A DNA stretch of 60,224 bases, counting the filler, from Hausera hauseri (lineage: Eukaryota), in the NCBI GenBank assembly GCA_046269625.1. It is 12 parts of 12 records of this genome, joined end to end, with 100 filler letters (N's around TTAATTAATTAA, not from the genome) between each part and the next. Parts side by side here need not be neighbours in the genome. Positions count along the whole stretch, not along the records: positions 27,524 to 31,662 come from JBJURY010738988.1; 11 more parts are not named here. One strand, written 5' to 3'. How positions within the stretch are numbered: position 1 is the first letter of the stretch; each line of letters starts with the position of its first letter. Positions 9,131-56,122 of the stretch are shown one piece after another. The notes under the pieces are model-generated. The model saw only the letters and a program-made list of their open reading frames with translations. It was not told the origin of the DNA and did no database searches. The position numbers and the translations under genes are program-made.

Positions 9131-9155
9131 TTAACCTTATTTTGTTTTATTTCAG
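9131..9155 (+). promoter_or_regulatory. Putative 3' splice site (branch point + polypyrimidine tract + CAG)
   Basis: TTAAC-CTTATTTTGTTTTATTT-CAG, with an ATG 13 nt downstream (ATG at 9169). Confidence 0.55.
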
Positions 9156-9168
9156 ATTGGTGAGTATC

Positions 9169-10818: not shown

Positions 10819-11527
10819 CATTTTAGCAGAAACTTTTAACTTGAAAACAAGTGTAGAGGATGAGGATTATTTCAAGAGTTAACATAGACAAACACTAAAC
10901 ATGGAAAACTAAACTCTCTCCAGACATTTTTTTTTAATTTATAAAAATACTAAACGCCTAACAATTTTCGAACTTGGTCCGTGTGTACTCTTCGTCGTAT
11001 TTTTACCAGCTATGTCGCCTGATGCGATGAACATTGGTGATCCATGTATCAGTGAAATTGCAACAATCGCATTCTATAGAACATCAATAAAATCTTTTTT
11101 TTTTATGTGTGGATTTAAAATATTTCACTATTCTTTTTAACATCCCAGAGATGTGAATAACGAAAAAGCGCAACTATTTCAATTTTCGTATTTCGAATCT
11201 TTTTCAAGATTCCGGAATTCAAAGATTCGAATCTCCCGTCCATATATAGTATGTTATGTGGCAACGTTTATTTACCCTTTCGCGTATGTTTGAACATTTA
11301 AAGATTTTCTCAATAATATCTAGAATGTTTGAACTTGCAGATTTGCTCTTTTGTGAGACATGCTCCAAGTAGTTTGCAGGTAAGAATCACCTTCTGATTC
11401 TCTCAGCTGTCCAGTGCAGTTAAGGTGTGCACTGTTCATAATAAGCACTCTGCACAGCACTACTTCAAGACAGGAACTCTCTCTTTAACCTGACCTTTAT
11501 GTAACATCTACCGAACTCAAGATTAAG

Positions 11528-12797
11528 ATGCTATTTTTTTCCAATAATAAACACCTCGATACTTTCAGTGCGACAAACAGAGACTTTACATTGTCTTTAC
11601 CGATATTTATCTCTCTTGCTTCACACCTCGGATTTTTATTTATCGCATCATGGATCTATCCTTAACGTCTATGACTCGCTTTCTTCCTTTTCTTCTCCAA
11701 TCGATCTCACTCTCGACTTTCCTCTACGGGGTGGATCGGACCCCGATCCTCCTTATGCTGAAAATTCCGCTAAGACCAGATCTTATCGACGTCCTGCTGA
11801 TCCTACACCAACTACCTCTCCTAATCTTCCTTGCACAGAGTTCTTCCTAGACAAAACTAATTCGAGTCGCACCTGGCTACAATTCCATTTGCGATGGCTT
11901 AAAGCCAATCACATCACAGATTCTTTCTTGGGGGCGAACAGCTTGCTGCTGCTTCTTCCAGCAAATATCATGCTACAAATCAACAATCTTGCCGATATAC
12001 TCACCTCTTCAAATCCATACGACATGCTATACGAATCAGTCCTACATATTACCGACCCTTCCATTGATAGCATAATACAAAAGTACTTTAATGAGCATGC
12101 TATCGGAACTCAAAAGCCGTCGGATTTCCTTAAAACTGCAATTTCCGGGCTGAGTCCCTTAGGCGTCACTACTACAAACAATGCCGACTCTCTTCGTCGG
12201 TATTTTCTTTCTTCCTTACCCACCTCTATTAGAGCGTTTCTCACTGTAGTAGACGATTCAACGGCACTCGAGAAACTCACATTTCTGGCAGACAGAAGTT
12301 TCGACATCTTGCAATCAAATAGTTCAGAACCACTAGCTGCAGCAACCGCTCACACGCCATCACACGCAGATAACATTTTATTTTCACAACAACTGCAAAT
12401 TATGAATAAACAATTCGATACACTTCAACAAGCAATTTCTGCGATTACAGCCCAACTTAGTGAGTTATCTGTGTCTTGACGAAGTGAAAACCGTGCTTCG
12501 CGTAATCGTAGTCTTTCCAGGCATTCTTTTCCATCCAAATTTCAAAATGGGAGAATAATTTGTTTTTATCGCAACAAATTCCAGAGACGCAAGGAAGTGT
12601 CTTTTGGGCTGTAGATTTTACGACGGACGTTATGCAGTAGACAGCCCTATCTGCATTTATCACACAAAGTATCAGTCCAAGGCCAGGTCGTGTGGGCCAG
12701 GATGCAAATATTATAAAAAGAATTTTAGTTTTTTCTATCTTCGCCTCCTCGCACTTATCATTCCTCTTCTTTTTCCCAACAAACCTCAAAAAACTAA
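11528..12797 (+). pseudogene. gag: UBL-Gag of family A copy 2
   Basis: MLFFSNNKH...(slip)...FYLSHHGSIL...LDFPLRGG-SDPDPP...LRRYFLSSLPTSIRAFL...LEKLTFLADR, then two C-X2-H-X9-C-X3-C-type fingers (the first degenerate). Confidence 0.85.
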
Positions 12798-12860
12798 CAA
12801 TGCGGCCAGATGCGACGGCACATTCGGGTATAGGCAATACCGCTGAATCTTCTGGCCGTC
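12788..12860 (+). promoter_or_regulatory. -1 ribosomal frameshift signal (A AAA AAC + pseudoknot), partly degenerate
   Basis: AAAAAAC at 12788-12794 followed by TAA. Loop GACGGC (12814-12819) is complementary to GCCGTC (12855-12860). The protease is in the -1 frame. Confidence 0.65.
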
Positions 12861-15800
12861 TTAGCACCGCCTCTGCAGTTTTTCTGTTAAAAGCTGCATT
12901 GCTCCCCAACAATGATTCACACATCGACTTCCTCATTGATTCAGGAGCTGCCTTTTCGCTCTTTCCCTTGTTCTTCACTCCTACATCCACTATAGTTTCT
13001 TCTCCACCGCTTTTTACTGCCAGTGGTCAACCGTTGCACATCGCAGGTACTAAGGAACTGATTTTCACATTCGCCAACTTACCAGATAAGTTTGTCTGGA
13101 AATTCCACGTGGCTAATATTAAATCCTCATAATCGGCTCAAATTTTCTGGCCGCACATGAACTGCTAGTTGACTGCAAATATCGCTGTCTGCTGCGCAGA
13201 AACTCCGCTGTGGATGCTAACAAATACCTACCAAACAGCCCAGTAGAAACTCCGCTGTTTTCGGCTGTTAACTCGCTTGTGAAATTGAAAACTTGTTCGT
13301 CGGCTAATAATGGTACAGTTAGTAATTCATTCATTTCTTCCATCACATCAATCGTATCTAAGTCGGTTTTAAAACAACCGAGTAAATGGAGAGCTGATGG
13401 TGGCAGTTACGGTTGTTCTTCACCAACACCATCTACTGTCGCTTCTGATGATACGCCTCAATCATTCTCATCGCTGGAATCCAATCTTAAATCCTTCATC
13501 AAAACTTCTTGTTTTCGCACTCTCAAGAAGGACGTCAATTTCCAGTCGCATACTACAACTTATCACCACAGTCACCGAACACCAAAGACCTATCAGACAA
13601 AAGGTCAGACCACTGTCACCTCGTAGGCAAAAAGCCGTTGAATCGGAGTTCAATGAACTCGAACAGTTTGGCATTATTCGAAGATCCAAATCACCATGGG
13701 CTTCACCATTGCATGTACTAACAAAGAAGATGGCACTTACAGTCCATGTGGTGACTATCGGCAGTTAAACAATTTAACAGGCCTGGATGCTTACCCTTTA
13801 CCTTTCATAAAGAACATCATGAACAGTCTTACCAACACTAACACGTTCTCCACAAGTGACTTGCATAAAGCTTATCATCAAATTCCTGTTGCACCTGATG
13901 ATATTTCAAAAACTGCTGTTATTACTCCATTTGGCCTTTATGAATATATCTTTATGCCATTTGGTTTACATAGTGCTTCCCAAACTTTTCAACGACACAT
14001 TGATACCGTCCTCTCAGNNNNNNNNNNTCAGGCCTTGACTTTGCCTCTACATCTGTTAAACAACATCAAGAACACCTTCGTATTACCTTTCACAGACTAC
14101 ATCAAACCAATGTGCAAGTCAACTTCTCCAAATGTCATTTCTTTCAAAAACGTGTAAATTTCCTGGGTCACATCACCACTTCTCACGGCCACTCTCCACA
14201 ACCGGATCGACTACAACAATTGAAAAACATAACGCTACCAACGACTACTACGGATATGAGGAGTTTCGTGGGCACACTCCACTTCATTCACAAATACGTA
14301 CTCATTGTTCTAAGTTTACAGCACCTTTTGCACATTTATTATCCGGAAAAAAGAGGCAATCAATCCATTGGACTCCTGATTTAGTCACCAAATTTGACCA
14401 CCTACGGGAAGGCCTAAAAACCGTCGAAATACTAGCCTATCCAAAGCCCAAAACAGATCTTATATTTACCACCGATGACTCTACCACAGTTACTGATGCA
14501 GTACTACACCAGATTTCTAATGGCATCGACAAACCATTACAATTTTACTCCCGAAAACTTATACAACCCGAAAGCCGTTACTCTACATTTGACCGTGAGT
14601 TACTCGTCATAGTTCTGGCAGTAAAACATTTCAAACACCTATTTCCCTCGCGTCCATTTGTCATTCAAACAGACCACAAGCCTCTCCTGCATATAATCTC
14701 GTTAAAACAGCCATTATAAAGTCAAGAACGACATATATCATACCTGTATACATTCAGTTTTGTTTTACAATACATTTCAGGCACAGACAATTTGGTAGCA
14801 GATTTTCTATCGAGGTCGGTTGGCTCCATTACAGTTGAGCCGATTTTCTCATCCGAAGTCTTAAAGCCAATCAACCGCCTGCTGACTTCCTTAGCTCTTT
14901 CAAATCCTTCGAAATGATTGATGGCATTGCTGTTGATACGTCGAGTTCCGGTAATAAAAAGATCATTTTAACTCCACCTTTACAAAAGCTAGCTTTCCTT
15001 TATACACATTCACTGCATCATCCGGATTCTAAAGCCACCTTTCGCCTGCTTCAACGTCATGTAATTTGGCCATCAATGAGCAAAGATGTACATGACTGGG
15101 TTAAGGAATGTGTAGCCTGTCAAAAATACAAAATCAACAAACACGTTAAACCGCCGCTTTATCATTTCCCTTGTACATCACGTTTTCATACGGTTCATCT
15201 TGATCTCGTTGGTCCTTTACCTTCTGACAATGGATATCAATATATCCTTACAATGATGGATCGTGCTTCTCGCTGGCCTGAAGCCATTCCTCTCCGTTCA
15301 AAGATCACTGATTCAGTAGCTGATGCATTTATAAAAATCTGGATCAGTCGTTTTGGTTCCCAACGTTACAAAAAAACGTATCAAGGTCCACAATTTGAGT
15401 CGAAACTCTTCAAATCACTTGTGAAACGCTTGGGGATATCCCATTTTCATATTACACCATATCATCCTCAAGCAAATGGCCTGCTTGAAAGGTTCCATCG
15501 AACAATGAAGATTTCTTTAAAAATCTTGGCTGACGCTCATCGTAATTGGACGTCTATTCTACAATTTGTTTTACTAGGATGGAACAATACACCCTCTACC
15601 ACTACCGGTTGTGCTCCAGCCGAGGCACTCTTTGGGACTCCAATTCGAGCTTTATTTGAACTTTCTGATCTCGACGACAACCCCACAGACGAAGTCATTC
15701 GTGCAGCACAATCTCACTTCGTCGAGGTCATCTCGGACTCCTTCTGCAGTCTCTCCAACAATAACAATTCGTACATTCCGAAGGATTTGTACACCGCAAA

Positions 15801-16333
15801 GTTTGTGTGGCTGAAAGATCAATCGCCTTCGCGTTTTAAACCTTAATATATTGGTCCATACAAACTGCTGAATCTCTTACCTCATACAGCTACCATCTTA
15901 CGCCAAGACAAACCTTACAACGTTCATATTTCGAATTTGAAGCCTGCTTTCTTCATTGATGACAATTTGGATGTCAATTTTACCTCCAGTTCAAACTCAG
16001 CTTTTACTCCTTCTGGTCTATCCACAAACTTTCTCCACGACTTTGTGCCGTTACAGCAATCACTTTTCTGTCACACTCAATCATCATCATATCATCCTTC
16101 CATCTCGTCTCCCTCCCTGTCATCATCACTACCTACTTCATCTCCATTACCTATATCGACTGTTTCATCACCTTCAATTATATAGCCTTTTGTTTGACTC
16201 ATTTCCTTCATCACCCTCATCAGATTCATTACAAGCAACATCAAGTAAGGCACGCAGAGTGACATTTAGCACATTCAGAAAAGAAAAGTTCTTTGATGGT
16301 ACACAATGCCTGATACATACTAAAAACGATTAG
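12788..16333 (+). pseudogene. pol: pol (PR-RT-RH-INT) of family A copy 2
   Basis: Fragmented ORFs 12692..13132, 13397..13768, 13696..14157, 14132..14719, 14914..15846, then an S/P-rich tail ending KARRVTFS...HTKND. A 10-N gap lies at 14018-14027. Confidence 0.93.
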
Positions 16334-16426
16334 GCGCCCAACATTGTTAATTTGTTGCGATTCATTGTTTTCATTCGTCCTATTCTTATCATTCTTTTCA
16401 CTTTTACATAAATTCTCTTCTGCCAC

Positions 16427-16435
16427 AGGGGGTGA
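16427..16435 (+). promoter_or_regulatory. Putative polypurine tract preceding 3' LTR (TG at 16436)
   Basis: AGGGGGTGA|TGTGATG about 95 nt after the pol stop; no matching 5' LTR found. Confidence 0.55.
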
Positions 16436-16569
16436 TGTGATGCCGTGGTCGCGGATTTAACTCGATAGCTGTAGAACCTATATAACGTCAGATAAAACGA
16501 TACAGTACCAACAGTGTAAAATTATCATAGAGCAAAACAAAATATAACCACGAAGAACTCAAAGATCTT

Positions 16570-16750
16570 CAGTATTGTGACGGCAGAAATCGTGGAAATA
16601 AACGAACCACTTGTCTACGCAAATTCACTATTAAATTCGAAATATCGACTTGATATTGTTAGTGAGTATTAAAAGTCATTTAGTTTTAGCTAATCCCGAA
16701 ACTTGACTATGAAGTTGAAAACGTCGTCCTTATCACCGCAATCAATTAAC
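16570..16750 (+). pseudogene. Possible very decayed cadherin-repeat remnant
   Basis: EIVEINEP ... (LVLANP)KLDYEVENVVLITAI, with a frameshift and a stop. Confidence 0.3.
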
Positions 16751-17733
16751 AGAGATGACAGAGTAAACGCAAATCTTCATTGGTGAGATCAATCAATTCA
16801 TTAAATAAATTACTTCGTTCCAATAATGAAAATGAAAGAACGACTTTGAAATATACAAACAAATTCTCTTCATCGATCTTCTACAATCTGAGTATTGTCG
16901 CTTACTCAGCAATGAGTTCTCAATAGAACAGTTCATACTTTTGTCCAAAGTAAAGGAAATGGATAAATCGCTATCAGTCGATGATGAACCCCTATCACGT
17001 GAATTTAGGAAAAGTAGTTCAGTTGGCAGACGTTTATATCTAGTAAATTTGGATATACCATTACATGCCTTTAATCTAGCTCCATCGAACTCAGCAAAGG
17101 GATAAAAAAATCAGACTCCTCGCAAATGACGAAAGTAGGGAAAAGAGGTGCATGTCGTGCAGCTCGTTTCAACCAAAATTGTTACGTCATTTCATACTTT
17201 TACGACTTTCCCTTCTAGCAGGCAGAATATATAAATAATATTAAAAATATAGACAGATGTACTTGTTATTGATTGTTATATACAGATTTTGTCTTTTGTA
17301 AATAAATATAACTGTATAAAAAATTGAAAAATGATTATTGATAAAGAATTTTTGAATCTAAAAAATAAAACTTGTTAATCGGCCCTTTCTTGTGGATTTA
17401 TTATAACTGTGGATTTATTTTACCCTTCACATGAAATTAAAATCATTGTTGTTAATAATGAAAGTTATTGAATTATAGAAAATTTTGATGACACTGATTT
17501 CTGACTTGATTTATGCGATTATGTAGGTCAGTTTTCAAAAGGTATGAAAATTAAGATTGATGAGCCATATTGATAGGAGAATGTGGTGCCCACGGCGGCC
17601 GGCGCCCTCTGGCCCATTCGGTTGGGCGCGGTTGGGCCTCCGTCGCCGGCACGTCGGGCCCATAGTCGAGCCCGATTTTACTCCTCCAAAGAGTATCCAT
17701 CATACCAAGGTTCATCGCATTCCTTTGTTGTTT

Positions 17734-17833: not shown

Positions 17834-19057
17834 CATCATAAAAACGGCATAAATCCTGTTGCTAGATGTGGCGCAATATTAATTGCAAATTGCGTTCCTT
17901 CCAAAAATTCATCCCAATCTTTTTGGTCCTTAGCCACTACTGTTGACAGTATACGTATGACGGTAGCATTCATCCATTCGACCATTCCGTTACATTGAGG
18001 ATGATATGCAGTAGTTGTTAATCGTTCGATTTCGAATATCTTAGTGATTTCCTCGAATAGTTCGCTGGTGAAATTTTTTCCTCGATCTGTGGGTATCTGT
18101 TCTGGGGGCCCGTATTGGCAAATAATCTTTCTTACTACGGCTTCTACTAAAGTCTCGGCCTTTTGATCTATCAATGCTATCAACTCGACAAAATGAGTTA
18201 GGCGATCGATACACGTCAAGATATACCTATTGTTCTTGTGAGTCGTAGGAAGAGGTCGTACGAATCCATTCACATGGCTTGCATGGGCCTGTCGGGTACA
18301 TCAATTGGTTTCAATTTGGACATATAATTTTTCGTCTTCTTTTGTTTAGTCGCACATACTTCACAGGTGTTTATCCAATTTTTCACATCAATATAGATAC
18401 TAGGCCAAAATTATTTATTCATTATTCTTTCTAATGTTTTTTCCAAGACATATGTCCGGCTAAGTATGAATCATGTTTTGACATTAGTACTTCAGTTCGT
18501 ATACTTTTGGGATAACTATCAATTTTCTTTTTTTCCCTTCGTAATATAAGGTGTCTCTTTCGCTCTCGTCATTTAAGACATAATATTTGTGTCCATGCCT
18601 GTGTAAATGTTTCTTTAACTGTCGTCCTTTTGATGTAATATCCCTTTCAGTAAATTCTATAATCTGCTGGATAACTTTATCCTTTCTCTGCTCTGTTGAA
18701 ATCTTGATGGCCCTATCTATTGTTAACGCGCGTTGGCGGTTTATTATCTCCTCAAGTTGACTTTTCTTCATTACAGTAATTGCGCTTGTTTTAGTCTTTA
18801 ATCTTGATAGTGCATCTGCGTCTACATGTTTGTTCCCTGCCTTATATTGAAATTCAATGTTGTAACTTGATATTTCCTTGATCCATCTGTTAAGTCTGCA
18901 TGTAGGGTTATCTACTCGCCCTTTTAAGGTTTTGACGGCCTTGTGGTCCGTGACAATTATAATTTTCTACCCATATACATAAACACTAAAATGTCGAAGT
19001 GCTTCTTTTACAGCTAGAGTTTCTAATTGGGTAACAGAATAATTTTTCTCGACCTTC
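17834..19057 (-). pseudogene. pol: Family B RNase H C-half + integrase (copy with internal deletion)
   Basis: Collinear with 27524-28750: EKNYS..LETLAVKEAL, TDHKAV, HVDADALSR, PTTHKNN..DRLTHFVEL, YHPQCNGMVE. Homology to pol stops abruptly at 19057. Confidence 0.92.
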
Positions 19058-19899
19058 TACTACTACATCGTAGCGATTCATCATTTCCTTTTTTATAAAT
19101 TTTAGTCCATGCTGATCCGAGATTAATATAGTAGGTGTAGGGTGTTCCGATACATCTTCGCGTGTCCTTGAATTAGTCTCCGATTTGTCTACATATTGTT
19201 TCCAGGTGGTTTCATTAAACTTTAGCTCCTTAATTTTGATAAAGTTACAGCTTCTTCCAGAGGGAGATTCCCATATTATAACAGAACTTCTAAAAGCACA
19301 GGATTCGTCTTGTAAGTAGCATTTCTGATTCTCAGTGTGTAACTTAGTAACACTATGAAATATTACCTTCTGTAATCGCATTTCTGATTCGAAGAAATTC
19401 ACAACTATCACATTTGGTTCTAATCCTTTTCCGGTATCGTATTCTGCTCCATTACAATGTTCGCTATGCATATTCAGCCTTCCAGCTACTACTTTGTATG
19501 CTCTGATTATCTTCCCTGGTTGCATTTCTAATTTCATATTGTCCCATTGTACTCTTCCAGACTCTTTAGCTTGTTTGCAGTGTTGGCGTTGTAAATTCAT
19601 TGGAATTAGTGGAGTAGTTGGCTTGATTATGGAGTAATGTCCGTGTATTAGTCCACAGTGGAAGATACTATGTGATCGTCTCAACATGCACTCCATTCCG
19701 TCTAACGATATCAATTCTTGCTGTTTGATACAGGAAGTAACTTTTCTCTCGTTTCCAATTTGTGCGGTCGGACATCCTCGCATACTTCCAGGTCTATTAA
19801 GGAATATCTCTGTCCTAATTTAAACTTATCGCAATCATAGACGGTTACCGCGCTAATGTGCTTCATTAGCATCATTAAGGCAAGCAAGGTAATTAGCCA
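19058..19899 (-). pseudogene. env: Class III (chuvirus/herpes gB-like) envelope glycoprotein, signal + N-terminal half
   Basis: WLITLLALMMLMKHISA|VTVYDC...YSLIDLEVC...EC.L.RS..IFHCG..GH...C..A..SG...C.GAEY...CYLQDESC....IIW......C. This Cys/motif pattern is typical of chuvirus-like glycoproteins. Frameshift at ~19735. Confidence 0.75.
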
Positions 19900-21759
19900 A
19901 TTTGATTCATTTTTTCGACCTCCTACGTCTGACGTTGTCAGGCTACGTAACATATAGTCGAGTTTATTGTTGTTTCGTTTGTCTTTTTCCTTGTCAAATA
20001 GTCTTGCCCAATTTACTTCGTCAGGCATTCTTGCTGCTTTCCGTGCTAAGCTTATAGCCCTATTGATCTCATTCTCTTGATTAGGATTGATTTTGATAGC
20101 TAAATATAGTAATACTTTTCTCAATTCTTCATTCGTGTTTTCTACCACGATCTTTTCTATTACTGACTCGCCGGATAAGTTACTTTTTGATAGTTTGAAA
20201 CGTGAACTTCTAATCATTTTGGCTGCATCGAAAATTATCTTTTCTTTATCATCCATCACATCTCGAAAACTAGAATAATTCACAATTCATATTAAATTTT
20301 TCATTAATTCGTTTAATTCCTCGTTGTCTGGGCTAAGAGTCGGAATCGACATCTGTCTCAATTCTCTAATTAATTCTCCGTTGTAATCCACTTCTTCTCG
20401 CATTTTTCTATGTCTGCCTACCGGGCGTTTTGGTCTTGGACCCTTAGCGGTTATTTGACTCAGTGGTACTAAATTTGTGTCGTATTGTTCCTTATATTCG
20501 TCTGTTTGTAAATACTCAAAATATAGTGCAGCGTCTCGAACTCCCATGATTTGTCCTACGCATTGTTCTGTTTTGGCTTTATGTGTAGCTTCTTCTTTTG
20601 TCTGTTTGTTAGCTATTACTACTATTATCCAATATGTTTCGTCAGGAATAATCCCAACGTCTGTTAGTTGTTCTAGGTCATCGAGTATTCTACCTCTAAA
20701 ATAAAATCTGTAGTTTAACTCGTTCGTTCCACCATTGTTTACTACCCATTCTCTTACGTCCTTTACGTAGGAGTATGTAGTCAACTCGCATTCTTTTTCG
20801 TCCATCCATTCGGATGACACCATTACCTTCATCGTCACCACAGGTTTAGCCCTCAAGATTTTAACGCAATTCCTTATCAAAAGTTTCGGCACCGCACTAT
20901 AAATCGTGTTTTCGCTAGATAATTTAGTTAAAGTTGGAATAAATTGTCCTAATTTATTCTCAGTAATATTTACATTAATTAGTTCAATCAAATCCCTTTC
21001 AGTTAGCGCTGAATACAGTAGTATATCCACATTGAATCTCCTGTTCTGCGGACATATTTCTATTGCGTTTAGTTGTACTGCAGTTATAGGTTTTCCGGCA
21101 AGTATTGCGTCGAAGTATGCATCCCATTCGGATTCATTTCCGGCATCCGGAAGTCGATCGTCCGCTAAAGCCGTATTGGCTCTTTGAATATTTTCCTTAA
21201 TTTCCTTTAATCTAGGCTGTATTTCTTTCATTTGCGTACTTCGGAAACCTGCTCCGTTTCCACAGGCATACTGTATCATTTTCAGTAATTCGCTTAATTC
21301 GTTCGGGCCGACCAGCCCTTTCTGGTGATAATCTGTCAATTCAAGGATCACATCCTTTTGCCATCTTTGTACGAATTCTCGTTTATTCTTAATCTCTAAT
21401 TCGGTAAAAGCATATTTGTTTCGATAGACTTCGAGCTCCTTTGTTATTTTCTCTAACTTTGTTGCTTTTTGTTTCGTCTTGATACATATTTCTTCTACTT
21501 TCTGTATCTTAGGCATCAATTGCATCATCTGTTCATCACTGATTTCTGCCATTTCCACCAATAAATAGGCTAACTCATACAGCTCATTTATAACCTTTGA
21601 ATCAGGGTCTACTGCGTCCGATAATTTCTTTACTAACTTGTATTCCTGAAAACTAAAATGTGGGTCGTTCCCTATTTCTATCAACTTGGTATGGAAATTC
21701 TGATCTGATCCGGCCATCCATTCTTGAGGTTTGTGCAAAAACTTTATTGCGTTTGTCAA
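19900..21759 (-). pseudogene. Family B N-terminal polyprotein segment: helical/coiled region + internal ubiquitin-like domain (20614-20832)
   Basis: ORFs 20287..21759 and 19711..20283 share a frame, separated only by TGA at 20287-20289. UBL: MKVMV...VKDVR...YRFYFRGRILDDLEQLTDVGIIPDETYWIIV. Confidence 0.65.
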
Positions 21760-21889
21760 CGTATCTCGATGCCCTGGATAAATGTCCAGTATTTCAATGT
21801 CTTGTGCAAAATTTCGTTGATTGGTTTTCCTGTTAAGTATTGTACTACTTCTAGTCGAACAATCTTTAACTTTGAGTTCACATCATAAA

Positions 21890-22687
21890 TCATATTCCGT
21901 TTTCCGTAAAATTCGTCTCTTCGATCAGTTTGTATATTTTCTCCATCATCAACGCTTCTCGTTCCCTTTCCGTAAATTTTAGTTGTCGTAGCGCTTCGAA
22001 TTGAGTACGGATGTCGGTTTCTATCCGTATTGTGCCAAGGTCATGCGCACTTTCTTCTAAATGTTTTATTACCGTTGGTTCGCTTTGTGGAAATTCTGTT
22101 TTGCGGTCTTCTACCAATTTGCTTAATCGCGTTATTAATTCGTACCATTCCGACAATTGATTTGCGATGATTGGTTTTGCTGTTATAGCTCTATCTAACA
22201 TCTTATGTACATCTCTTAACTCATCGTTCGGCCCTCTTAGAAAGTTCATAATCCGGGCGATATAATTAAACTCGTTTTTATACTCGTCCAATTCTACTAT
22301 ACAAGCCTTTATTACGTATTGAGTATCCTCGTTGTTTGGGAACATAATTCTCAAAAATTCGTTAAACCCGTCCGGATCTCTGTCATATGCCGGCAGGTTT
22401 AGGGAATCGAACGTGAAAATTTCCAGCTTCTGCGCTACTGGTGGATTATCTGCTGCTATATTATTTACGTTTTTTAGCTCTAAATTTGCTTTATTTACTT
22501 TAGGTTTCTCAAGTGTAATTTTAAACTGTTTATTTTGCATGACAACTTTTAGTTTGTTTCTATTCTCGGAGTTTGAACGTTTATCTACTTTTTCTGTTTC
22601 TCTATATATGTTTCGACGTGTCTCACGTATAGGTGAATTGTCCTTTAGTATATGATTTATTCCTGACCTATCAATGTTTGTTCTCTA
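21890..22687 (-). pseudogene. Putative Gag/capsid-like ORF of family B
   Basis: LNLPAYDRDPDGFNEFL resembles the LP.FDG.P....EF motif at the start of LTR-retrotransposon capsid domains. The frame is open about 50 codons upstream of ATG 22540. Confidence 0.45.
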
Positions 22688-22725
22688 TTAAGTTTTGCTT
22701 ACTTATTCCCGTAAAAATAGCCTAT

Positions 22726-22825: not shown

Positions 22826-23245
22826 AAGACTACAAATGCTGTCTCATACGTGAAACTTTACGAGCAATATAAACAACACCTGAATCAGTTTTATCAGTCT
22901 AACACCAAAAAGATGATTCAGCCTATTTCATCAAATAATCTGATGTTGCAACCAAATGACCAAATGGAAAAATGCAATGCGGCCAAATTCAACCAAATTA
23001 CATTCTATATCTGGTGAAGTTGTAAAACGGCAGAAAAGGTCAAATTCTCTGACTTTTACAATCAGCATGAAATACATCTTGTGCCATTTCAGATATTCAA
23101 GAAAACTAATATTTTCAGAGATGCCCTCAAGGATCAGCCGCCAACCGCAACAATACGCAGCAGGAAAGCCAAATGTTAGTCTCAAGCAATACCAGCGACA
23201 ACGAGTAACAAGAATATTAGAATACGAACGGCCGATACACATGCA

Positions 23246-26123
23246 ATGAACAGAAAGGTGAATATTTTCAATATGAATGCAAGTGAAGATGACCATGACA
23301 TCACGAATTTCCTCAACAATAACAAATCGGAAGTTGAAGGCATTATTAGAGATGAACTGCAACGTCTCAATGGAATAAAAGTCAATCTGTTTCGGAAGTC
23401 CCTGTATTCAAATATAGATGGAGAAATTTCTCAACGAACCTTTAAAATAAAGAGTAAGGCAGTATTATTGGATATGGACATCAGTGAATTTCTCGAAACG
23501 GACTACCAAAAAATAATCAACGAGGCTGATGAAAGTGAGTCCAAAAAAGCAGATGTACTCTGTCGGCATTCAGAAAACTCAGTGTTAGGGTAAACAAATA
23601 CTCACCAATCATAGGATCCTTGTATGTACCGTTGCCAAACTGGATTGTGAAAACAAAAGCATGTATCAACGTGCAAAACTACTATGATCAGCAGTGCTTC
23701 AAATACGCAGTATTAACGAAACTGCTTGTAGATCAAAATAAAAATCACCCACATCGAGTAGCAAGGTATGAAACCCGTACACATTCATGATTTTTTATGC
23801 ATACAATATTCCCAAATGTACATGAAATTAAGAATTTTGAAAAGGTAAATAATATGCCAATTAATGTATTTTCCATGATGAAATCAATAAAATATATCCT
23901 ATGAAAGTGTGCAAGAATGAATATGATGAACACAGGTACATGTTGTTACTCATCAGTGGTGAAACAAATCATTTTGTCTATATACAAAACTTGGAACATT
24001 TAGTGAAATCACAAATTACCGGACACCACGAACGAAGTTATATTTGTAATAGATGTCTGACACACTTTGATAATCAAACTAAACTGTAGAACCACAAAAT
24101 TTATTGGAATAGCAAACAAGCACTTCGACCGGATTTTCTGATTGAAGACAATATAGAATTTAAGGAATATGAAAGACGCATTCGAGTACCGTCGTAATTT
24201 ACTGCGACTTCGAATCCATCTTGAGGCCAGATTGTACATGTAATCCAAGTAATGACAGATCGAGCACAACAACCACTCACATACATGAGCCTATGTTGTT
24301 TCCAAAGGGCTACAGCGATAAACTTATCCTTTACAGAGGACAGAATGCTGAATCAATTTTCATGAGTGAATTGAAACGGATCTCATGGAAGTAGAAAAAT
24401 ACCAGAAAAACCAATAGAAATCGATAGAAATGATAACGAGTGGCATGAACAGCGTCAGTGTGTTACCTGTGTGAAAAACAGTTTATTGAAAAAAATTATA
24501 AAGTCGATGACTACTACCAATTTTCAGGAAAATACCGCGGTGCAGCCTACCATAATTGCAACTTGAGACGTAGGGGCATTCGGTTCATTCCAGTAGTATT
24601 TCATAATTTGTCGGGTTACGATTCACTCTTTTTCGTTTGAGAATTAGGTAAACCACAGGGTCCAACATCCTTCATTCCACATAACGAAGAACGGTAAATT
24701 ACGTTTACAAAACATTCCGGAAAAATTGAGCTGAGGTTCGTAGATAGTTTTAAATTTATGAACAGCAGCCTGGATGAACTGACAAGGAATATGCCCGATG
24801 ATTCTTTCAAGGAGACAATGAAATACTGCCAATGATCAGTTGTTTAATTTTGTTAGAAGAAAAGGAGTGCTTCCATAAGAGTACATAAGTGATTAGGATA
24901 ATCTCAATGAAATATCGCTGCAGGCAAAAGAATGTTTCTACAGCACTATATATCAATCAAACATAACATATGGAGATTATGAGCATGCTCAAGCAGTCTG
25001 GCATGCGTTAAAATGTCAGACAGTACACTAGCATATCGACATTTATTTGAAAACAGATGTCCTATTACTGACTGATGTGTTTGAACGGTTTCAGGATGTA
25101 ACGGTAGCATCATATAAAGTAGACTCGGCTCACTATTTTGCAGCACCATGACTCATATGGAGTGCAATGTTGAAAGGACGTTTATAAGGATGGAAATTAT
25201 CAAATATTACGACATGATTCTCATGCTGGAGCAAGGAATTAGAGGAGGATTACGTCAGGTTGTACACCGATAGGCTGAAGTCAACAATAAATACATGAAT
25301 GAAATGTACAATGAAAGCCGGAAATCAATGTACACATCTTACTTGGACGCCAACAACTTGTATGATTGGGCTATGTCACATTATTTACCGTGCGCAGACT
25401 TCAAATAGACCGAACGGAACGGTGAAGACATTGATATACTCAGCATCTGTCCAACAGCCGATACTGGATACATTTTTGAGGTGGACATTGAATATCTTGA
25501 GAGCTTACACGGGCATAGTGATCAACTACCATTTTTATCGGAAATAGTTAATGCTCCAGACAGTAAAAATAAGAAACTAATACCTCATATTGGAAATCGA
25601 CGGAGATGTGGTCTATTACATATTCCTTCAACAAGCCATACAACATGGACTGAAGGTCGTTAAAATCCACAGAAAAATTCAGTTTAACCAATCTCCACGA
25701 CTACAGTCATATATAGAGTTTAATAAAGAATTTAGAATAGTAGCCACTAATGCCTTTGAAAAAGACCAGTATAAGCTGTACAACAATGCCGTATTCGGGA
25801 AAACAGTGGAGAATATTAGAAACCGAATGCAGATTGAACTGGTCAATGAATGGAAACGGGCCAAAAAGCTTTTCGCGAAGTCAAATTTTCTGCACTCTCA
25901 GATCTACACAGAAAATCTCATCGGTATTCACATGTTGAAAACTCGCTTGGAGTTTAGTAAACCAATTTATGTCGGCATGTGCACACTGGATCTAAGCAAA
26001 ATACTGATATATGATTTTTATTACAATGTTAAGATTTCGAAGTTTGGTTTGGTTCTATTGCAGCTATTGTACATGGATACTGATTCATTGGTGTACAGAA
26101 TATGTAGTGTGCCAAGAAAATAA
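23246..26123 (+). pseudogene. polB: Polinton/Maverick (adintovirus-type) protein-primed family B DNA polymerase, decayed
   Basis: INVQN..QCFKYAV, ICNRCL.HF, YCDFES, GKYRGAA..NCNL, FHNLSGYDS, FVDSFKFM.SSL, GIRGG, YLDANNLY.WAM, KLYNNAVFGKT.EN.R.R, KPIYVG, LLYMDTDS. Confidence 0.92.
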
Positions 26124-27523: not shown

Positions 27524-30500
27524 ATGAAGAATGGGGTAAATCCTGTCGCTGGATGTGGCGTGGTATTAATTGCAAATTGAGTTCCTTCTAAAAATTCATC
27601 TCAATCCTTTTGGTCCTTTGCTACTACTGTTGATAATATGCGTATGACTACAGCATTCATCCGTTCGACCATTCCGTTACACTGAGGGTGATATGCGGTA
27701 GTTGTTAGTCGTTCGATTTCGAATATTTTGGTGATCTTTTCGAATAGTTCACTTGTGAAATTTCTTCCTCGATCTGTGAGTATCTGATCTGGGGGGCCCG
27801 TATCGGCAAATAATTCTTCTCACTACGGCTTCTGCTAAGGTTTCGGCCTTCTGATTGATTAATGCTATTAACTCGACAAAATGAGTTAATCGATCAATAC
27901 ACGGTAAGATATACTTATTGTTCTTGTGAGTTGTAGGAAGAGGTCCTACAATATTTATCGACATGGCTTGCATGGGCCTATATAGCACATCAATAGGTTT
28001 TAATTCGGTCATGTAGTTTTTCGTCTTCTTCTGTTTAATTGTACACACTTTGCAGGCATTTACCCCGCTTTTCACATCAATGTAGATACTAGGCCAAATG
28101 TATTTATTCATTATTCATTCTAATGTTTTCTTCCAGGACATGTGTCCGGCCAAATATGAATCACGTTCTGACATCAGCACTTCGGGGCGAAAGCCTTTTG
28201 GGATAACTATTAGTTTTCTTTTTTTTCGCTCGTAATATAAAATATCTTCATTGCCCTTGTCATTTAAAATGCGATATTTATGTCCATGTCTGTGTAAATG
28301 TTTCTTTAACTGTTGTCCCTTTGATATGATATTCCTTTTAGCAAATTCTATAATCTGCTTGATAACTTTATCTTTCCTTTGTTTTATTGGGATTCTAATT
28401 GCTTTATTCATCCTTAAGGTGCGTTGGCGATCTATTATTTCTCCAAGCTGACTTTTTTTCATTACTGTAATCGCACTCGTTTTAGTCTTTAATCTTGATA
28501 GAGCATCGGCATCTACATGTTTATTCCCTGGATTATACTGAAATTTGATATTATATCTGGAAATTTCTTCGATCCATCTGTTGAGTCTACATGTTGTGTT
28601 ATTTTCTCGACCTTTCAAAGTCGTAACGGCCTTGTGATCGGTGACGATTATAATTTTCTGCCCGTATGCGTAAACGTTGACGTGGCGAAGTGCTTCTTTT
28701 ACGGCTAGAGTTTCCAATTCGGTAATAGAATAGTTTTTCTCGGCCTTCCTCAAGGAACGTCCTCCATAACCAAATCGGGTGCTCTAATTCTTCATATTTT
28801 CTTTTCTGCGCCAATTCATATCCAATGCCTTTATTACTGGCGTCTGTCTTGATTATGAAAGGTAAGTTAAAATCTTGATATCGTAAAACAGGTTCACTTG
28901 TTAATATCTTCTTCATTTCGTCGAAGGCTTTCTGTTCGACATCTGTCCATTTCCATTTAATTTCTTTCTTCAGCAAGCGGTATAGAGGTGCATTAATTTT
29001 TGAATTATCTGGTACATAGGTTGCGTAATATCCGCAGAGTCTCAACCAGTGTCTTAATTCCTTCTGGTTTTGTGGTTCCATGCAGTCTGATATTTTATTT
29101 AGCAGCGATTTATCTGGCTTCGATCCTCCTTCTACAACTATATGGCTAAGGTAGGATACTGCGTCTTGAGCCCATTTGCATTTCTTCGGATTCAACTTCA
29201 ATCCGGCTTGTTCCAATCTCATCAATGTATGTTCGATATACTTTAAATGTTCCTCCTCGATCCTTGATGCTATCATTAAGTCATCTAAATACACAAAAGC
29301 ATGATCCAATCCCACTAGCATTTTGTTCATCATTCTGGTAAATATGACTGGTCCAGTAGTAATACCGAATGGTATGATGTTAAATTCGTAAACAGCATCG
29401 TGCGTTTTAAATGCTGTCTTATAACGGTCTTTATCTTCAATCTCCACTTGCAAATATCCGGATTGTAAGTACAGAGTGGTAAACCATTTTGCTCCTGAGA
29501 GTCTGTCTAAAGCCTTTTTGACCGACAGTAGTAAAAAGGAATCTTTCATCAAGAGGTTATTTAAAGCTCTGTAATCAATACAAAATCGATGTTTCGTAGT
29601 ACTTTTCTTCTTAACCATGAGGATTGGTGAATACCAAGATCTATATTTGAGCCTAATTATATCTGCTTTAAGCATTCGTTCGACTTCCTTCGTTATTTCG
29701 GGTCTTAGAGAATGTGGCGAAGGGTACCATTTTGGCATCTTTTGGTATTCCAAGTTTATTTCTTTATTCGAACCGGGCTTTTTCTTGATCGGGATTGTCA
29801 GTTTTAACGCTTTTGCTGTACCGATATCTTTGTCCTTAGCAAAAATCGATTTGTAGCGGCACAATTGTTTGTAAAATCGACAATAAGATTCGGGAGAAAA
29901 TTTAGTTTCGACATGAGGTGGAAATTCGGCATACTTGTAACGCTTTTCTTCAATAGTTATCAACGACACCCTATACATGTCTCCCAAGGTAATATAAGCA
30001 TGAAGCTTGACGGGAGTCGGCGCATTATTAACTATTTTGATCAGCACTCGACCGGAGTGTACTCTTGTTAATACATTGCTGGGTAATATATTCGGATCTA
30101 ACGTATCTCTTGTTTCTAAATGTACGGATTGATCGTCATCTTGCTGTATCTGGGCATAAATTATCATTTCTGTTCTCGGTAGAATGTTTTCGTCAACTGT
30201 TATCCACACCTCTCCGAATTTCCTATCCTTAGCAATTTTCACGCCTTTATTTGGTCTGATTTCGATTAACTTCCCTGTTTGTAAATCGATTGCTATATTT
30301 GGTAATCTTTTCAGTAGATCGCATCCTAGAACTACATCATCGGTTAATTGCTCCATGACTGCAAATTCTTGATGGAAAAACTGTTTAACTATTTGGACTT
30401 CTGGGTTCCATTTAAACATCGGTTTCGACATTTGACCAAAAGCTCCTGTACTTCCTGGATCTTTCGTAGACGGTGGGTATAATTGTCCTCTCAGTGTTTT

Positions 30501-30734
30501 AGGTATTGAATCATTTTTGATGTAAGACATCTCGGATCCTGTATCGATTAAGGCATAAACTTCCAAATCCTCAATTATTATTTTGGTGAAGGGTCTTCCT
30601 TCTATTATTGTTCCGATACAGTTTGATGCAACTTTTTGGCGTTTAGTTGCTGATATTTTATGTCCGTTGATTCGTATTTCTGGAGAGGATACTATATTTT
30701 CCGACAGCTGTCTTAATGCTTCGTATGTATATAA
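27524..30734 (-). pseudogene. pol: Family B pol: PR - dUTPase-like spacer - RT - RH - INT
   Basis: ALIDTGSE, RFCIDYRALN, SGY.QV, PFGI, VYLDD, TDAS..GIG, EKNYSITELETLAV, GHMS..KT, IVGPLP. The frame is open from 30734. Confidence 0.95.
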
Positions 30735-31491
30735 CTAGTTGTTTCCTATGTGCAATTTTTCCGCTTCATGTGTACTAATTAACGGTTCTTGATTGTTCGT
30801 GTGTAGTTCAGTATTCTGGAAAATTTTTAACCTTGGATTGTCCCAAACCGTTGATCTAGTTTCTATATTTTGAGGTTCTCTCGGAGAATACAACATCTTG
30901 GAAGCATCTGTGGATTGTCGGTAGCACATATTCCGTAGAATCCCGTAACGTTTCGTTCCTTCATAAGGGTCTTCTACATTAATTTTCCTTTTATAGATTT
31001 CCGTCTGATATAATCTCATTGATTGTTTGTCGCAGTCTTCATGGAATGGGGCGGTAGGGGGTATCATTGGCAATGGTGCTTTAATGACAGAGTATGTCTC
31101 ATGTCTGTTTATTCCTGAAAGTACTTCTCCTCCCTTAGTCTCGTCATTATCTGAATTATTTCTTCGTGTATTATGTTTCGTAAATTTCTGCTTCTGCAAG
31201 AATATAAGTCTTCTTCTTCTTTTACGATTATAATGACCGACATGACGTTATACGTCGGATTTCAATCTGTTTTCTTCGTATGCCTTTAAGAATTTTCCAA
31301 AGGGCGCTATGATTACAGTCAAAATTTTGCACGAAAATCCGGTCAACGTAAATATTTCATACCCATTAATTACGGCTTGGATAAATGCCTTGATCATTTG
31401 TATTAGAAAATATATATCTAAGAATCCGAAAATTAAGAATTTCCCCAAATTTTGTATAGTATTTCCGTGGTTACGCGATGGTAATGATGCT
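30735..31491 (-). pseudogene. env: Envelope C-terminus (membrane-proximal/TM) + cytoplasmic tail, in frame with pol
   Basis: (KIWG)KFLIFG..IY..IQMIKAFIQAVINGYEIFTLTGFSCKILTVIIAPF matches the chuvirus-GP C-terminal pattern W..F..FG...IK..I...I.GY....G.S..LL, followed by RKRRRR. ORFs at 31448, 31199 and 30566 share one frame. Confidence 0.7.
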
Positions 31492-31662
31492 AATAATGCG
31501 CCGACTCCCGTAAAGCTTCATGCTTATAATATTTTGGGAGACATGTATAGAGTGTCGTCAATAACTACTGAAGACAAGTCTTACAAGTATGCCAAATTTC
31601 CACCTGATGTTGAAACTAAGTTTTCCCCCAAATCTTATTGTCGATTTTACGAACAATTGTGC
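31492..31662 (+). repeat. Inverted, diverged duplicate of pol segment 29859-30029
   Basis: NNAPTPVKLHAY.ILGDMYRVS.IT.E.K.YKYA.FPP.VETKFSP.SYCRFY.QLC on the opposite strand. Confidence 0.9.
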
Positions 31663-31762: not shown

Positions 31763-32400
31763 CAAGGGCATACATTTTTGGTCTAAGTCCAACATAGGCA
31801 GTAATAATCTTGCTGTTAACTTCATCTTTAAATTTTCCTGAAACTTTTTTATTTGACAAGGAAAAGTTCTTATGGTCTCTGGGATAATCTGATGTATCGA
31901 AGAAACTTGCCAAATTATAAAAGTCATTGAATATATCATTAGACCTAATATGATATATGAATGAATCCGTATCCATATACATTAGTTAAATGTCTGGACA
32001 ATTTGGCTTCATGACATTATAGTGGAAGTTATATATGAGTATTTTTGACAAACCGAGTATCGACATTCCAACATAAATCGGCATGTTGAAATTGAGAATC
32101 GTTTTTTGCATTTTGATACTAGCAAAATTTTCCGCATAAATAGTACTGTGTAAAAAATTCGGCTTTGCAATTAACTTTCTTGCTCTTGTTTAGTCGTTGA
32201 CCAAGTCAATTGACAACTTATTCTTTATATTCTTCATAGTTTTCCAAAAACGGAGTTCTACAATTTGAATTCATCTTTTCTAAAATTGTTTGTTGCATTT
32301 GTCCGAAGATTTGTCTTGAATGGAACATATGTTCTACATGCAGAAGCCAATCGTACTGAATATGTAGAGCATAGTTACCCCATACGATGCTGCTATTGTG
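31763..32400 (-). pseudogene. polB: Second Polinton-type pPolB fragment (C-terminal part)
   Basis: MPIYVGM.ILGLSK, YMDTDSFIY, FDTSDYP..H, NKKV.GKFKDE, GLRPKMYA. Confidence 0.9.
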
Positions 32401-33840
32401 TAACATGCGGGTATTATGTAATGTGCCGGTATGCCTAATATGCGGGTATTACATAGTATGCGGGTATTGCGTCAAAATATTTAAAAAGAATGAGAAAAAA
32501 AATTTTTAATTTTCAAAAAAAATTTCTTTTGCTAGTAAACCATTTTGACTTAGAAAAAAATTTCAAAAAAAATTAATATGCTGATATTACATAATATGTA
32601 TGTATTATGTAATATATTGGTATATATGATGAAGAATTTTACACATGTCACATTCAAAGACAATGGAAAGTAGAAACACGCACAGTTTGATCCTGACAGA
32701 TTTTTTTGCACCGTGCGTTCATTCATTTATTTTAACTTTTTCAATTCCGGACTCTATGCCATTCAGTGAAAATTATTATTTTTGTTACTAATTTTGTTGG
32801 ATTTAATTTACTCAAAACATAATTAGATATATCCAAATACTCTGTTAATCTTAGTAACATATAAATGTTCCTGGAAATTCTGAAGGGGAAGTCCGATGGC
32901 GGTTCGGTATGTGGAATACCTGCGCCTCTGATTATGTATATGGACAATTACCCTTGATTCTGCACATAGGTAATGTATACGTGTATTATAAGAGATCAAC
33001 TGTGTAATAATGTATGGCATGCGTTTCAATTCGGACCAAGGATATATATCTAATAGAATAATTGTATGGTATGCACTTCGATTCAGATCAAAACATGCAC
33101 ACGTATTTACATGACAATCCATATTCCATGATTTCAAACTATTATACCTCTTGACAATCATATCTCCATGTCTTCGTTGTTATCCATGTATCGGAATGAG
33201 AAGCAATTCCACGGTCAACACAAACATGTTCAAGACATCTAAGTCTCTTGTTATTGCAATTCAAAGGTCCCTTCAAAAGTGGTTTCATTCTTAATATTAG
33301 GTACCATATTATTTCATTCTTCTCCGTTCAGGGAACAAACTTTAGAGTATACGAAAGTTCACCTACTACGTCACTCAGTATTTAGCGTAAACCATGTCTA
33401 AGGAATATATCATTAACAGAAATCGAATATACAACAACCACGGAGCAACGCATATACTTGGTATTCATCCCAATTCCAGTCAAAGTCATGTATTGATATA
33501 TACCAAGCCACATCGAGAAAGCCTGTTATGATCGGACTTGTTTCTCTTTACCACATTATATACCGGACACCAACAACTACCCCAATCTCTCCGTATCAAT
33601 ACTGAACATGATTCTAACGTAGGATCTTTATATATATATCTTCTTGTATCGGCATACTTATCGTCCTCTAACTAAACCGTATTTACCAATTCAAATTCTC
33701 ATAAATCAACCAAGATTTTCTTTCGTGTGTTCCACAAATATGTTTCTTTCCGTTCTACTAAATCTCTGCATATAATCGCGCATACTAAATTAAGTTTATT
33801 ACTAACAAAGTCAACTACTTATAACCTTGTGGTGGTATAA

Positions 33841-42672: not shown

Positions 42673-43149
42673 AGTCATAGTGGTGGCGCCCGAGTCCGCG
42701 GCACCACAATTTGAGGATCTATTACAACTTCTAATGACAATGGATTGCTTACATTCTTCAGACACTGAGGTACTTTTGTTGTTACATTTACATGATGATG
42801 AAATCAAAAAACCCATTCGATTTTGCAATTGTTAAAAAATGATATGAACGAATAAACATATGAGCGCTATCTATTTTATGTTCATATTCAGAACAAACTT
42901 CAGAATTGTCGTCTTTAAATTCTCGTGTTAGCGGCTTAATGCCGTCATAGAAACTTTCGAGTTCCTTCAACAAATCTGCAGACTGTTTCATATTTTAGTA
43001 TGATGTACATTTGCATTTTTTGTGTGAATAAATGAATATTAATTATTGATAATACATGTTTTTTTTAATTTTTGAATAAAGGATAGAATAGTTGTTATTT
43101 CTTGAATGTACTTATCACCGTTTGAGCGTTTAATGTACAGAATCAAACA

Positions 43150-46100
43150 AACGTTTATCTCATTTTTAACGGATTTGTTCTCATCAACTTCAACGACCTA
43201 TCTTCTCATCATACATCTGCTTATACATCCAGCCCAGAATTCGTGGTGGCATGTTGTCTTCACCAACCAGTGACATCACAGATAAGGTCCGTTGTCTATT
43301 ATCCAAAATCAGCCAATAAAACTCTTTTAACTGCTTCTATCTCTTCACCTAAAACCACTTCTAATACTTTTCCCCAATGCACTGAATACTTTACCGACAA
43401 TAAAAACTCTAGTAAGACTTGATTTCACTTCCACCAGCTCTGGCTACAGTCTAATGGCATCACCGAACCGTTAGCCAAAGCCCACAATCTACTCTATCTA
43501 CTACCAAACGTAATAAAGACATGCGTTCATAACTTACTGAACATTTTTCAACTAACGGAACCGTCAATTGACTCGATCGTATAACAATTCTTTAATGAAA
43601 ATGCAATGGGCATTCAAAAACTTAATGATTCATTACGCACCTCTTTGGGTCATTTACGTAAACTTGGCGTTACCAAGGAACACAATCCGGATCTACTTCG
43701 CCGCTATTTTCTTAATGCTTTACCCATTCTAATTAGGTCTCTACTTATTGTCGTTGAGGATTCGACAGATTTAGATAAAGTAGCCGAATTGGCCGATAAA
43801 GCGCGTGAAGCTTTACAAATACAAGCACAGCCAATAATATCAACCACAATCAAAACTAGCGGCAATCAACTACATACACCTATAGAACAACAATTGAGCC
43901 AATTACGCGCCGAAAGTGCAGAACTACAACATACATTCCATAAAATTAATGATAAGCTGAGCGACCTTTTCTTGCAGCGACGGAGTGCTCCTGCTTTTTG
44001 TCACACGCGTACGGCCTCAAGAAATCGATCACCGTCGCCGGCGCGGTCATTTGTATGCTATTATCATAACAAATTTAATAACTAAGCTAATAAATTTTGT
44101 TGTTATCTACACTCAGATAACATTGTTTGCATCTATCATGCAAAATTTGGATATAATGCTCGGAAATGTATTTCAAGCTGTAACTATAAAAACAACGCTA
44201 ACTACATCAACGGCAGACGTTCTAGTTTCTCTAATAATAACCGCCTAAACTGGCCAATCAAAAGAACTGATTTCGTCGCCAGTACTCACGATAGAGTCTG
44301 GCAAAGGCAATTTACCTAATCCTTCTTGCCGACACATTTATTTTGCCGTCTTTACACCAAAAGCTGCAATCTCTACCCCGAACATTCAATCCATAGATTT
44401 TCTCATCGATACCGATGCAGTTATCTCATTACTACCACTTTCTTTTCCGGTTCAGCATTCTTCACTTAAAACAAAACCTTTATACATCGCTTCCGGTCAA
44501 CCCCCTCATATTTCCGGAACTTGCAAATTATCTTTCAATCTTCCACAATTTTCCTTAACATTTCATTGGAGGTTTACAGTCGCTAACGTTCAAACTGCAA
44601 TATTTGGCTCTGATTTCCTGTCGCACTATACTTTGCTAGTTGATTGTAAACAACGATGTCTGAAAATAAATACAACTGGAGACTGTAAAGCACGAACAGG
44701 CAGCATACTGACGACAGCGCAGCCGGTGGTAAGGAGAAAATCGATCCTAAAAAGGTCAATACCTCATTCTAATTCTCTTAACTATCATATTTTACTTCAC
44801 AAGTTTTTAAATATTGACGTTGATAGTCAGTCGAAGCTAAATGTTGATAACCATGATCTTGTCGCTTCTGTAAAATTACTGCACAAAAACACGTCCTTCA
44901 ATACCGTCTTTAACACTACCATTTTACATCAGATTCCACTAGATTTTGCACCAGCAAATAACCTACATTTATCAAGTACTGCTAACAACATCAGTTCATC
45001 GCCACCTCCAATGTTCTGGCAACTACCTGGAAGTTTGAAACAATTCATCAATACTTCTTGTCCTCGTATTCTTCAGAAATATCGGAAATCCATTTTTGAA
45101 AACGGCATCTGCCATTATATCATTACACAACACCAAAGACCCATTCGTCAAAAGGTTCGTCCATTATCACCTCACCGCAGGCAGGCAGTAGAAGCGGAAT
45201 TCTTAAATCTTGAACAATCAGGTACTGGTCATAGATCTAAATCCCCATGGTCTTCGTCTATCCACATTTCCATAAAAAGATGGATCCTTCGACCATGCGG
45301 CGACTACCGCCAGCTTAATACTTTAACCGTAATGGATGCACACTCACTACCATTGATTAAAGACATACTACACGGGCTTAATTCTACCACAGTTTATTCA
45401 ACCATTGATTAAGCCAAAGTGTACCGCCAAATTCCCGTCGCACCGGAAGACACCGACAAAACTTCAGTTACCACACCTTTCGGTTTTTGCGAGTACCTGT
45501 ACATGCCTTTTGGTCTTCGGAATGCTGCACAGACCTGTCAGAGACACGTCGATTCAATCCTTTCAGACTTTCCTTTTGCGCATCTATATATTGACGATAT
45601 CTTAGTTGCTTCTTCTTCTATCAAACAGCACGAACAACACCTACGCTCTATCTTCAAACGACTTAATCAGCACAATCTACAGATCGGTTTTGCATAATGT
45701 AACTTCTTCCAAAAACGCGTTAATTTTCTTGGACATATTATCTTATCAAACAGCCATTCACCTCAGCCTGATCAATTTAAGACTCTTAAAAACGTCCAAA
45801 TACCTAGGACAACCACAGAAATGCGCAATTTCCTCGGTACCTTACATTTCGTTCACAAATATGTTCCATACTGTTCGGAACTCACGGCACCTTTTGCCCA
45901 CTTAGGCGGAGGAAAAAACACCAGAAAATCCAGTGGACACCACAATTGGTCGATAGGTTCGATAGGCTACGCGAAGGACTAAAGACTATTGAAATACTAG
46001 CATTTCCTAAGCCTGATTCCGAGCTCATCTTAACCACAGATGCACCAACCATCGCAGTAGGCACCGTACTACATCAATTTTATAAAGGCGAAAATCAGCC

Positions 46101-46685
46101 TCTAGAATTCTTTTCAAGAACACTAACACCACCAGAAACTAGATATTCAACTTTCGATCGAGAACTACTGGCAATAGTTTTTGCCTTAAAGCATTTTTCC
46201 ACTTACTTACAGCTCGTCATTTCGTTATACAGACTGATCACTAACCTTGGATTAATATAATGGCAATGAAACACCTTCCACTAGACAAGAACGACAAATT
46301 TTATATTTTTCCATATTTAACTTCGACATTAAACACATTAACTGTGTTAACAATCTAGTTGCCGATTTTTTATCAAGGTCAGTTGGTTCAATCAATTTTA
46401 TGCCGATTTTCACTCACACACAACTTCAACAAAACCAAACATCTCAAGACATTATTAATTCTTCCAAATCTTGCAATATTGTAGACGGCATGGCCTTATG
46501 CACGTCCAAACCAGGAAAGTCTAAAATAATACTAGCACCTCCCTTGTAAAAACAAGCATTCAACAGCGTACATTCGCTACACCACCATGGTGCTAAGACT
46601 GCTTTTCTCTTACTCCAACGACATGTAGTTTGGCCGTCAATGCGTTTTGATGTGCAGAAATGGGTTAAGGAATGCATGGCTGGCC
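43150..46685 (+). mobile_element. Family A copy 3: UBL-gag, PR, RT, RH, start of INT
   Basis: YLIFNGFVL...PRIRGG-MLSSPT (43236-43253), LRRYFLNALP, two CHCC-type fingers, FLIDTDA, LYIDD, YSTFDRELL. Confidence 0.92.
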
Positions 46686-56052: not shown

Positions 56053-56122
56053 CACTAGAGCAATCTGTTGACCATTTTACTAATTAAATGAAACAGAAAA
56101 AATCGTAACGAAAGTGTATGTG

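Follow-up and report, generated by a model that had tools for sequence, protein, structure and literature searches.

The analysed window is a stretch of 60,224 nucleotides from Hausera hauseri, made of twelve pieces of 4–7 kb with eleven N44-12mer-N44 spacers between them, and adjoining pieces are not necessarily neighbours in the genome. One of these pieces, referred to here as the focal piece, carries on its minus strand the end of an envelope glycoprotein (Env), a hydrophilic spacer, protease (PR), reverse transcriptase (RT), RNase H, and part of an integrase (IN) (Table 1). The domain order PR-RT-RNase H-integrase and the gypsy-type RT place the element among the Ty3/gypsy retrotransposons (Metaviridae). 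Env is truncated at position 31490 by an inverted copy of nucleotides 29859–30030, which represents either a genomic rearrangement or an assembly chimera. The piece is further damaged by four stops, three frameshifts (near 31445, 28780, and 27800), and a gap of five codons in the anchor relative to the database protein P0100. It is a dead copy of a probably undescribed family.

Table 1 Features of the focal piece and of the sister copy within the window.
Feature	Position	Strand	Remarks
Focal piece, decayed element from the Env end to the integrase core	27524..31662	-	No LTR inside; ends within Env and integrase
Inverted duplicate of 29859-30030 (PR-RT linker)	31491..31662	+	172 nt, 90% alike
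Env residues directly before the anchor, neighbouring frame	31446..31490	-	Frame-fit score
Class III (PF24664) Env membrane anchor and the amphipathic segment after it	31287..31448	-	Profile and relative matches; 5 codons shorter than P0100
TAA stop, likely decay	31248..31250	-	
Hydrophilic spacer, basic cluster then Pro-rich, predicted cytosolic	30600..31247	-	Without CCHC and without additional hydrophobic segment
TAG stop, likely decay	30735..30737	-	
Aspartyl protease (DTG)	30303..30599	-	PF00077, E 1.5e-5
PR-RT linker	29901..30257	-	Corresponds in position to the dUTPase-like domain of Burro; weakly matches P0100 1202-1301 (E 0.002)
Reverse transcriptase	29139..29615	-	PF00078, E 9.6e-31
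RNase H, interrupted by the frameshift near 28780	28553..28949	-	
Integrase, stops 28115-28117 and 27601-27603, frameshift near 27800	27526..28204	-	
Sister copy, region preceding Env, about 650 codons in the Env-start frame, one stop	19912..21882	-	
Sister copy, internal signal sequence and Env domains I-II, frameshift near 19750	19067..19911	-	
Sister copy, RNase H end and integrase, joined straight to Env	17842..19056	-	83% identical to the focal piece

The Env assignment rests on profile and pairwise comparisons. A preliminary description of the piece had expected region 31248–31490 to match class III glycoproteins, and the region indeed aligns to positions 553–601 of the 653 in PF24664 (Monjiviricetes_fusion) with an E-value of 7.5e-6; its score of 24.6 bits lies under the curated cut-off of 27 because only the anchor of the protein remains. 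The same region matches the Env anchor of the stop-free P0100 (39% over 51 residues) and a profile of the Env proteins of seven relatives (E 1.5e-7). The residues directly in front of the anchor fit Env in the neighbouring frame only (score of 284 versus 91 and 86 in the other frames; 0 of 2,000 shuffles), and the first of the frameshifts is therefore placed at this boundary. Neither of the hydrophobic segments of the focal copy scores as a good anchor, as expected if the anchor has decayed, on a hydrophobicity scale that is a rough guide only.

Env anchor, spacer, PR-RT, and the first half of RNase H share one reading frame. The ORFs beginning at 31448, 31199, and 30566 were correctly assigned to a single minus-strand frame, which is interrupted between 31517 and 28599 solely by the TAA and the TAG. 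However, the three ORFs all begin with TTG codons, which are unlikely start codons in an animal element. The frame described for the span 28599..31491 holds as well, but its end at 28599 falls in out-of-frame sequence past the RNase H frameshift, and Pol extends beyond this point to the integrase at 27526. Over 31490–30567, the shared frame contains two stops in 308 codons, versus 11–25 stops in the other five frames and a mean of 22.3 in shuffled sequences; two or fewer stops in any minus frame were obtained in 0 of 20,000 shuffles. The zinc knuckle was rightly reported as missing between the transmembrane segment and the protease, since the CCHC pattern does not occur in any frame of 30400–31662, and no Gag remnant was found between the anchor and the protease.

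The junction of Env and protease might have originated as a one-off chimera, with the env 3' end of one element placed beside the pol of another, or as a misassembly. The inverted duplication at the start of the piece and the fragmented state of the assembly are in keeping with such an origin, as is the protein P0008, in which the order gag-pol-env is followed by a second protease. However, a Gag remnant is missing from the interval between anchor and protease, and the piece is covered in all of its 30 bins by contigs from two public runs (15,609 and 1,008 records). Anchor and spacer are included in this coverage and are therefore repeated like Pol. Two of the 16 contig pieces listed span the spacer towards the protease with 0–1 gaps, and of the 12 indel rows listed out of 18, one falls within the spacer and comes from a single contig. 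The two runs were those listed by the search, with shares of 0.28 and 0.07 and no RNA run among them. The sister copy described below, which independently has Env upstream of pol, also speaks against a chimera, and we consider this origin of the junction highly improbable.

The sister copy lies in the piece 17834–22725, where the N-terminus of Env precedes pol, so that env is located upstream of pol in both the focal and the sister piece. Env domain II of the sister copy abuts the end of RNase H near 19057, reflecting an internal loss of about 3.5 kb. Upstream of its Env, a ubiquitin-like match (PF00240) at 20638–20778 has an E-value of 0.016, which does not reach the cut-off. No Gag motif was found in the 2.8 kb upstream of the sister Env, and a search of the same upstream region for Bcl-2 gave no match, with an E-value of 0.21 to P0091. 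Single-sequence folding of the sister Env yielded a pLDDT of 32 and was unusable. A third copy of the family at 6747–10718 has an integrase 76% identical, followed by ORFs with a signal-like segment (7672–8049) and a membrane segment (8296–9057). In P0094 and P0100, the integrase is likewise followed, within the same ORF, by a signal-like segment and a membrane-anchored domain; the layout resembles that of the third copy, and homology is not implied. The remaining pieces of the window include fragments resembling family B DNA polymerase of the Polinton/Maverick type (22826–26123 and 31763–32450, judged by eye only), several decayed copies of another gypsy family in which env was not detected (10819–17733, 42673–46685, and 51268–60224), and broken ORFs resembling cadherin repeats (1993–3980, by eye only). 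Together with the AT-rich composition and the many retroelement fragments, these ORFs point to an animal source.

Searching 1.84 billion proteins with the sister Env recovered 16 relatives, all of which contain PF24664. Ten end before the anchor and six reach it, of which five run stop-free into a protease. P0094, P0100, and P0107, the last a cluster member 4,844 residues long, continue through RT and integrase. In P0100, a zinc knuckle, Env, PR, RT, and IN occupy one ORF that is collinear with the focal piece, with the anchor and PR-RT in the same frame. A CCHC knuckle precedes Env within the same ORF in three of the 16 relatives, and in P0092 a match to PF00452 (E 1e-3) lies before Env. The distance from anchor to protease is 301 residues in the focal copy, versus 148–391 in six relatives. 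The stop-free P0094, P0100, and P0107 show the polyprotein directly; they share the order Env-PR-RT-RNase H-IN with the focal copy, in a single ORF, and they are the closest Pol relatives found. They differ from the focal copy in that their RT is 42–45% identical and their spacers are unalignable, and P0094 and P0107 have extra protease domains. A tree of RT, RNase H, and IN groups the copy with these three proteins on a long branch (SH-aLRT 99.5, bootstrap 91); it was calculated with a simpler model from 23 rows and 712 columns, using 22 of the 41 relatives in the RT tree. P0029, a Gag-Env-Pol ORF of a different lineage, does not group with the copy. The RT-only tree, a quick search of 41 of 108 proteins and the copy, left the copy unplaced on a long branch.

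Several features of the relatives and of the searches deserve mention in their own right. P0099, P0102, P0104, P0107, and P0094 contain two to eight aspartyl-protease-like motifs per ORF, a tandem arrangement that might allow proteases to pair inside a single chain. Ankyrin and C2H2 matches are additionally present in P0107. The database record of P0100 assigns it, as a hypothetical protein, to a bacterial metagenome-assembled genome, and its source is likely eukaryotic DNA in a bacterial bin. P0008, initially a full-length match with 95% cover, was rejected for its gag-pol-env order. It is a 3,092-residue ORF with gag, pol, chromodomain, and env, in which the second protease lies past the Env anchor, which suggests how an env-pol order could arise from gag-pol-env. 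A word-index protein search for anchor, spacer, and protease gave no match in a candidate set of 3,818 long and 5,108 mid-length proteins, by a method that also missed P0094 and P0100. No related loci were found in metagenome or viral contigs, and Atlas searches returned no usable match.

The reading frame, the domain order, the lesions, the position of Env before pol in the sister copy, and the stop-free relatives together form the basis for interpreting the locus. We conclude that the focal piece is very probably a Ty3/gypsy copy with a class III Env anchor in frame before protease, RT, RNase H, and integrase, that the active element likely encoded one Gag-Env-Pol polyprotein, and that the two stops likely arose by decay after insertion. 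It had been proposed from the sequence that Pol was made as an extension of a membrane glycoprotein. This proposal stands in that a single polyprotein frame runs through anchor, spacer, and Pol, a layout for which stop-free relatives are known, but it was incomplete, as the same ORF likely includes Gag ahead of Env, by analogy with P0100 and the planarian Burro elements. The further suggestion that Pol is thereby tethered to budding membranes would be a hypothesis.

Alternatively, translation of Env could finish at the TAA, giving it a short tail, and Pol could be a separate ORF whose RNA is spliced or internally started. The frame would then be shared as a leftover or through a one-in-three coincidence. 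The TAA is located about 20 codons past the hydrophobic region, where PF24664 is also near its end, and P0092 stops 68 residues past the anchor motif without a protease. Separate ORFs would also agree with the description of ORFs in the arrangement GAG-ENV-POL with gaps of up to 2,000 nt allowed, as given in the available portion of the article by Chary and Hayashi (PMC13524379). However, the 170 codons that follow the TAA are open in AT-rich DNA and look coding, and the relatives have this region as one ORF. A separate Pol ORF thus appears distinctly unlikely.

The two stops were previously attributed either to decay or to readthrough of the kind known from murine leukaemia virus (MLV). Decay is likely, as the stops fit the load of four stops and three frameshifts in the piece. 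At least two of the four stops are expected within the anchor-protease interval with P=0.22 when weighted by the chances of stop gain, so that they are not enriched there. For readthrough, one stop, most plausibly the TAG before the protease, would be a codon shared by the whole family and controlling how much Gag-Env is made relative to Pol, and the other would be decay. The gag stop of MLV lies upstream of the protease and is read through to produce Gag-Pol, and the in-frame TAG of the focal copy has the same position. Furthermore, a one-to-one output of Gag and Pol is unusual, and some control could be expected. PR-RT contains no stops in 589 codons versus two in the 293 codons from anchor to PR, a difference in density that counts against decay and in favour of readthrough. 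The focal copy is nevertheless unlike MLV in that Env takes the upstream place, there are two stops, and no downstream structure was found. The four ViennaRNA folds 3' of the stops, calculated without pseudoknots on a decayed copy, had z-scores of +1.27 and +0.68 for the TAG and −0.94 and +0.50 for the TAA, similar to those at the integrase-region stops (−0.20 and +0.97). Five of the six anchor-reaching relatives are stop-free to the protease, and two serial readthrough events would, by multiplication, leave very little Pol. No close stop-free copy was obtained, and the nearest relatives are too distant in RT and therefore silent on the state of these two codons. The 40 listed of the 1,724 differences from the public contigs include neither stop, which is uninformative. 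We therefore do not uphold MLV-style readthrough and judge it improbable that the TAG is a conserved readthrough codon of the family, at which most ribosomes would finish a membrane-bound Gag-Env bearing a long cytosolic tail, with Pol added by a minority. If true, it would constitute translational control at the Env/Pol border of a Gag-Env-Pol element, which would be of real interest.

Based on the polyprotein layout with two stops that likely represent decay, a pathway for the synthesis of Gag-Env-Pol can be proposed. Viral polyproteins that are threaded through the endoplasmic reticulum (ER) provide the analogy for this mechanism. Gag and accessory domains would be translated in the cytosol and remain there. 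The internal signal sequence, located at 19840–19890 in the sister copy, would direct the Env ectodomain into the ER, and signal peptidase would cut the signal. The Env anchor would then stop the transfer, leaving the basic spacer and Pol back in the cytosol, where the protease may dimerise on the membrane and free Pol. Production from a single chain would provide Gag, Env, and Pol in equal numbers, with Pol initially tethered to the membrane. In six of six relatives, the first hydrophobic segment outscores the second and the spacer has no further one, on the same rough scale, which fits a predicted single membrane crossing. The layout raises the question of how a single Gag-Env-Pol chain passes the ER membrane two times, becomes cleaved, and achieves a balance between Gag and Pol, and a literature search found no treatment of this membrane topology for these elements among the 17 papers listed.

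The Env-Pol layout is real, yet it has already been published for flatworm elements in 2019, and the focal piece adds one dead copy to it, which is of little significance as found. Nematode NERVs, attributed to Sacco et al. 2022, reportedly have a continuous gag-env-pro-pol ORF. They resemble the focal copy in the placement of Env before the protease in a metavirus, and they were described from nematodes. The available part of the article by Chary and Hayashi cites Sacco et al. 2022 for a flipped ENV-POL order in these NERVs (PMC13524379).

The closest described counterparts are planarian. According to the portion of Arkhipova and Yushenova 2019 that is accessible (PMC6431247), env lies in frame between gag and pol in the Burro elements, which have an ORF of about 4,900 residues and a size of 25–30 kb. 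Burro/GYPSM1 has ubiquitin/SUMO-like and BCL2-like domains upstream of Env and, by HHpred, a dUTPase-like domain between PR and RT, and decayed Burro-type fragments with stops and frameshifts were reported in one planarian species (PMC6431247). Burro and the focal family are alike in that their Env is related to fusion glycoproteins of mononegaviruses and is positioned in frame directly before PR (same source). The ubiquitin-like match of the sister copy, which lies below the cut-off, would if genuine correspond to the Burro domain ahead of Env. The long PR-RT linker of the focal copy is also Burro-like; no Pfam match to dUTPase was found in this linker. Gag, the BCL2-like and dUTPase-like domains, LTRs, and the size of 25–30 kb are seen in Burro and not in the 4–5-kb pieces studied here, and the comparison is with the published description of Burro. 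The gB-type GAG-ENV-POL elements, reported from Platyhelminthes, Bryozoa, and Nematoda in the part of Chary and Hayashi available (PMC13524379), are like the focal family in having a class III env upstream of a Ty3/gypsy pol. These errantiviruses are intact, whereas the focal copy is dead. Six Smed_errantivirus rows from Schmidtea in the same source resemble the sister Env in cysteine pattern and motifs, as judged by eye only. Judged by its sequence, the focal family would belong to the gB-type GAG-ENV-POL elements in both the class and the order of env.
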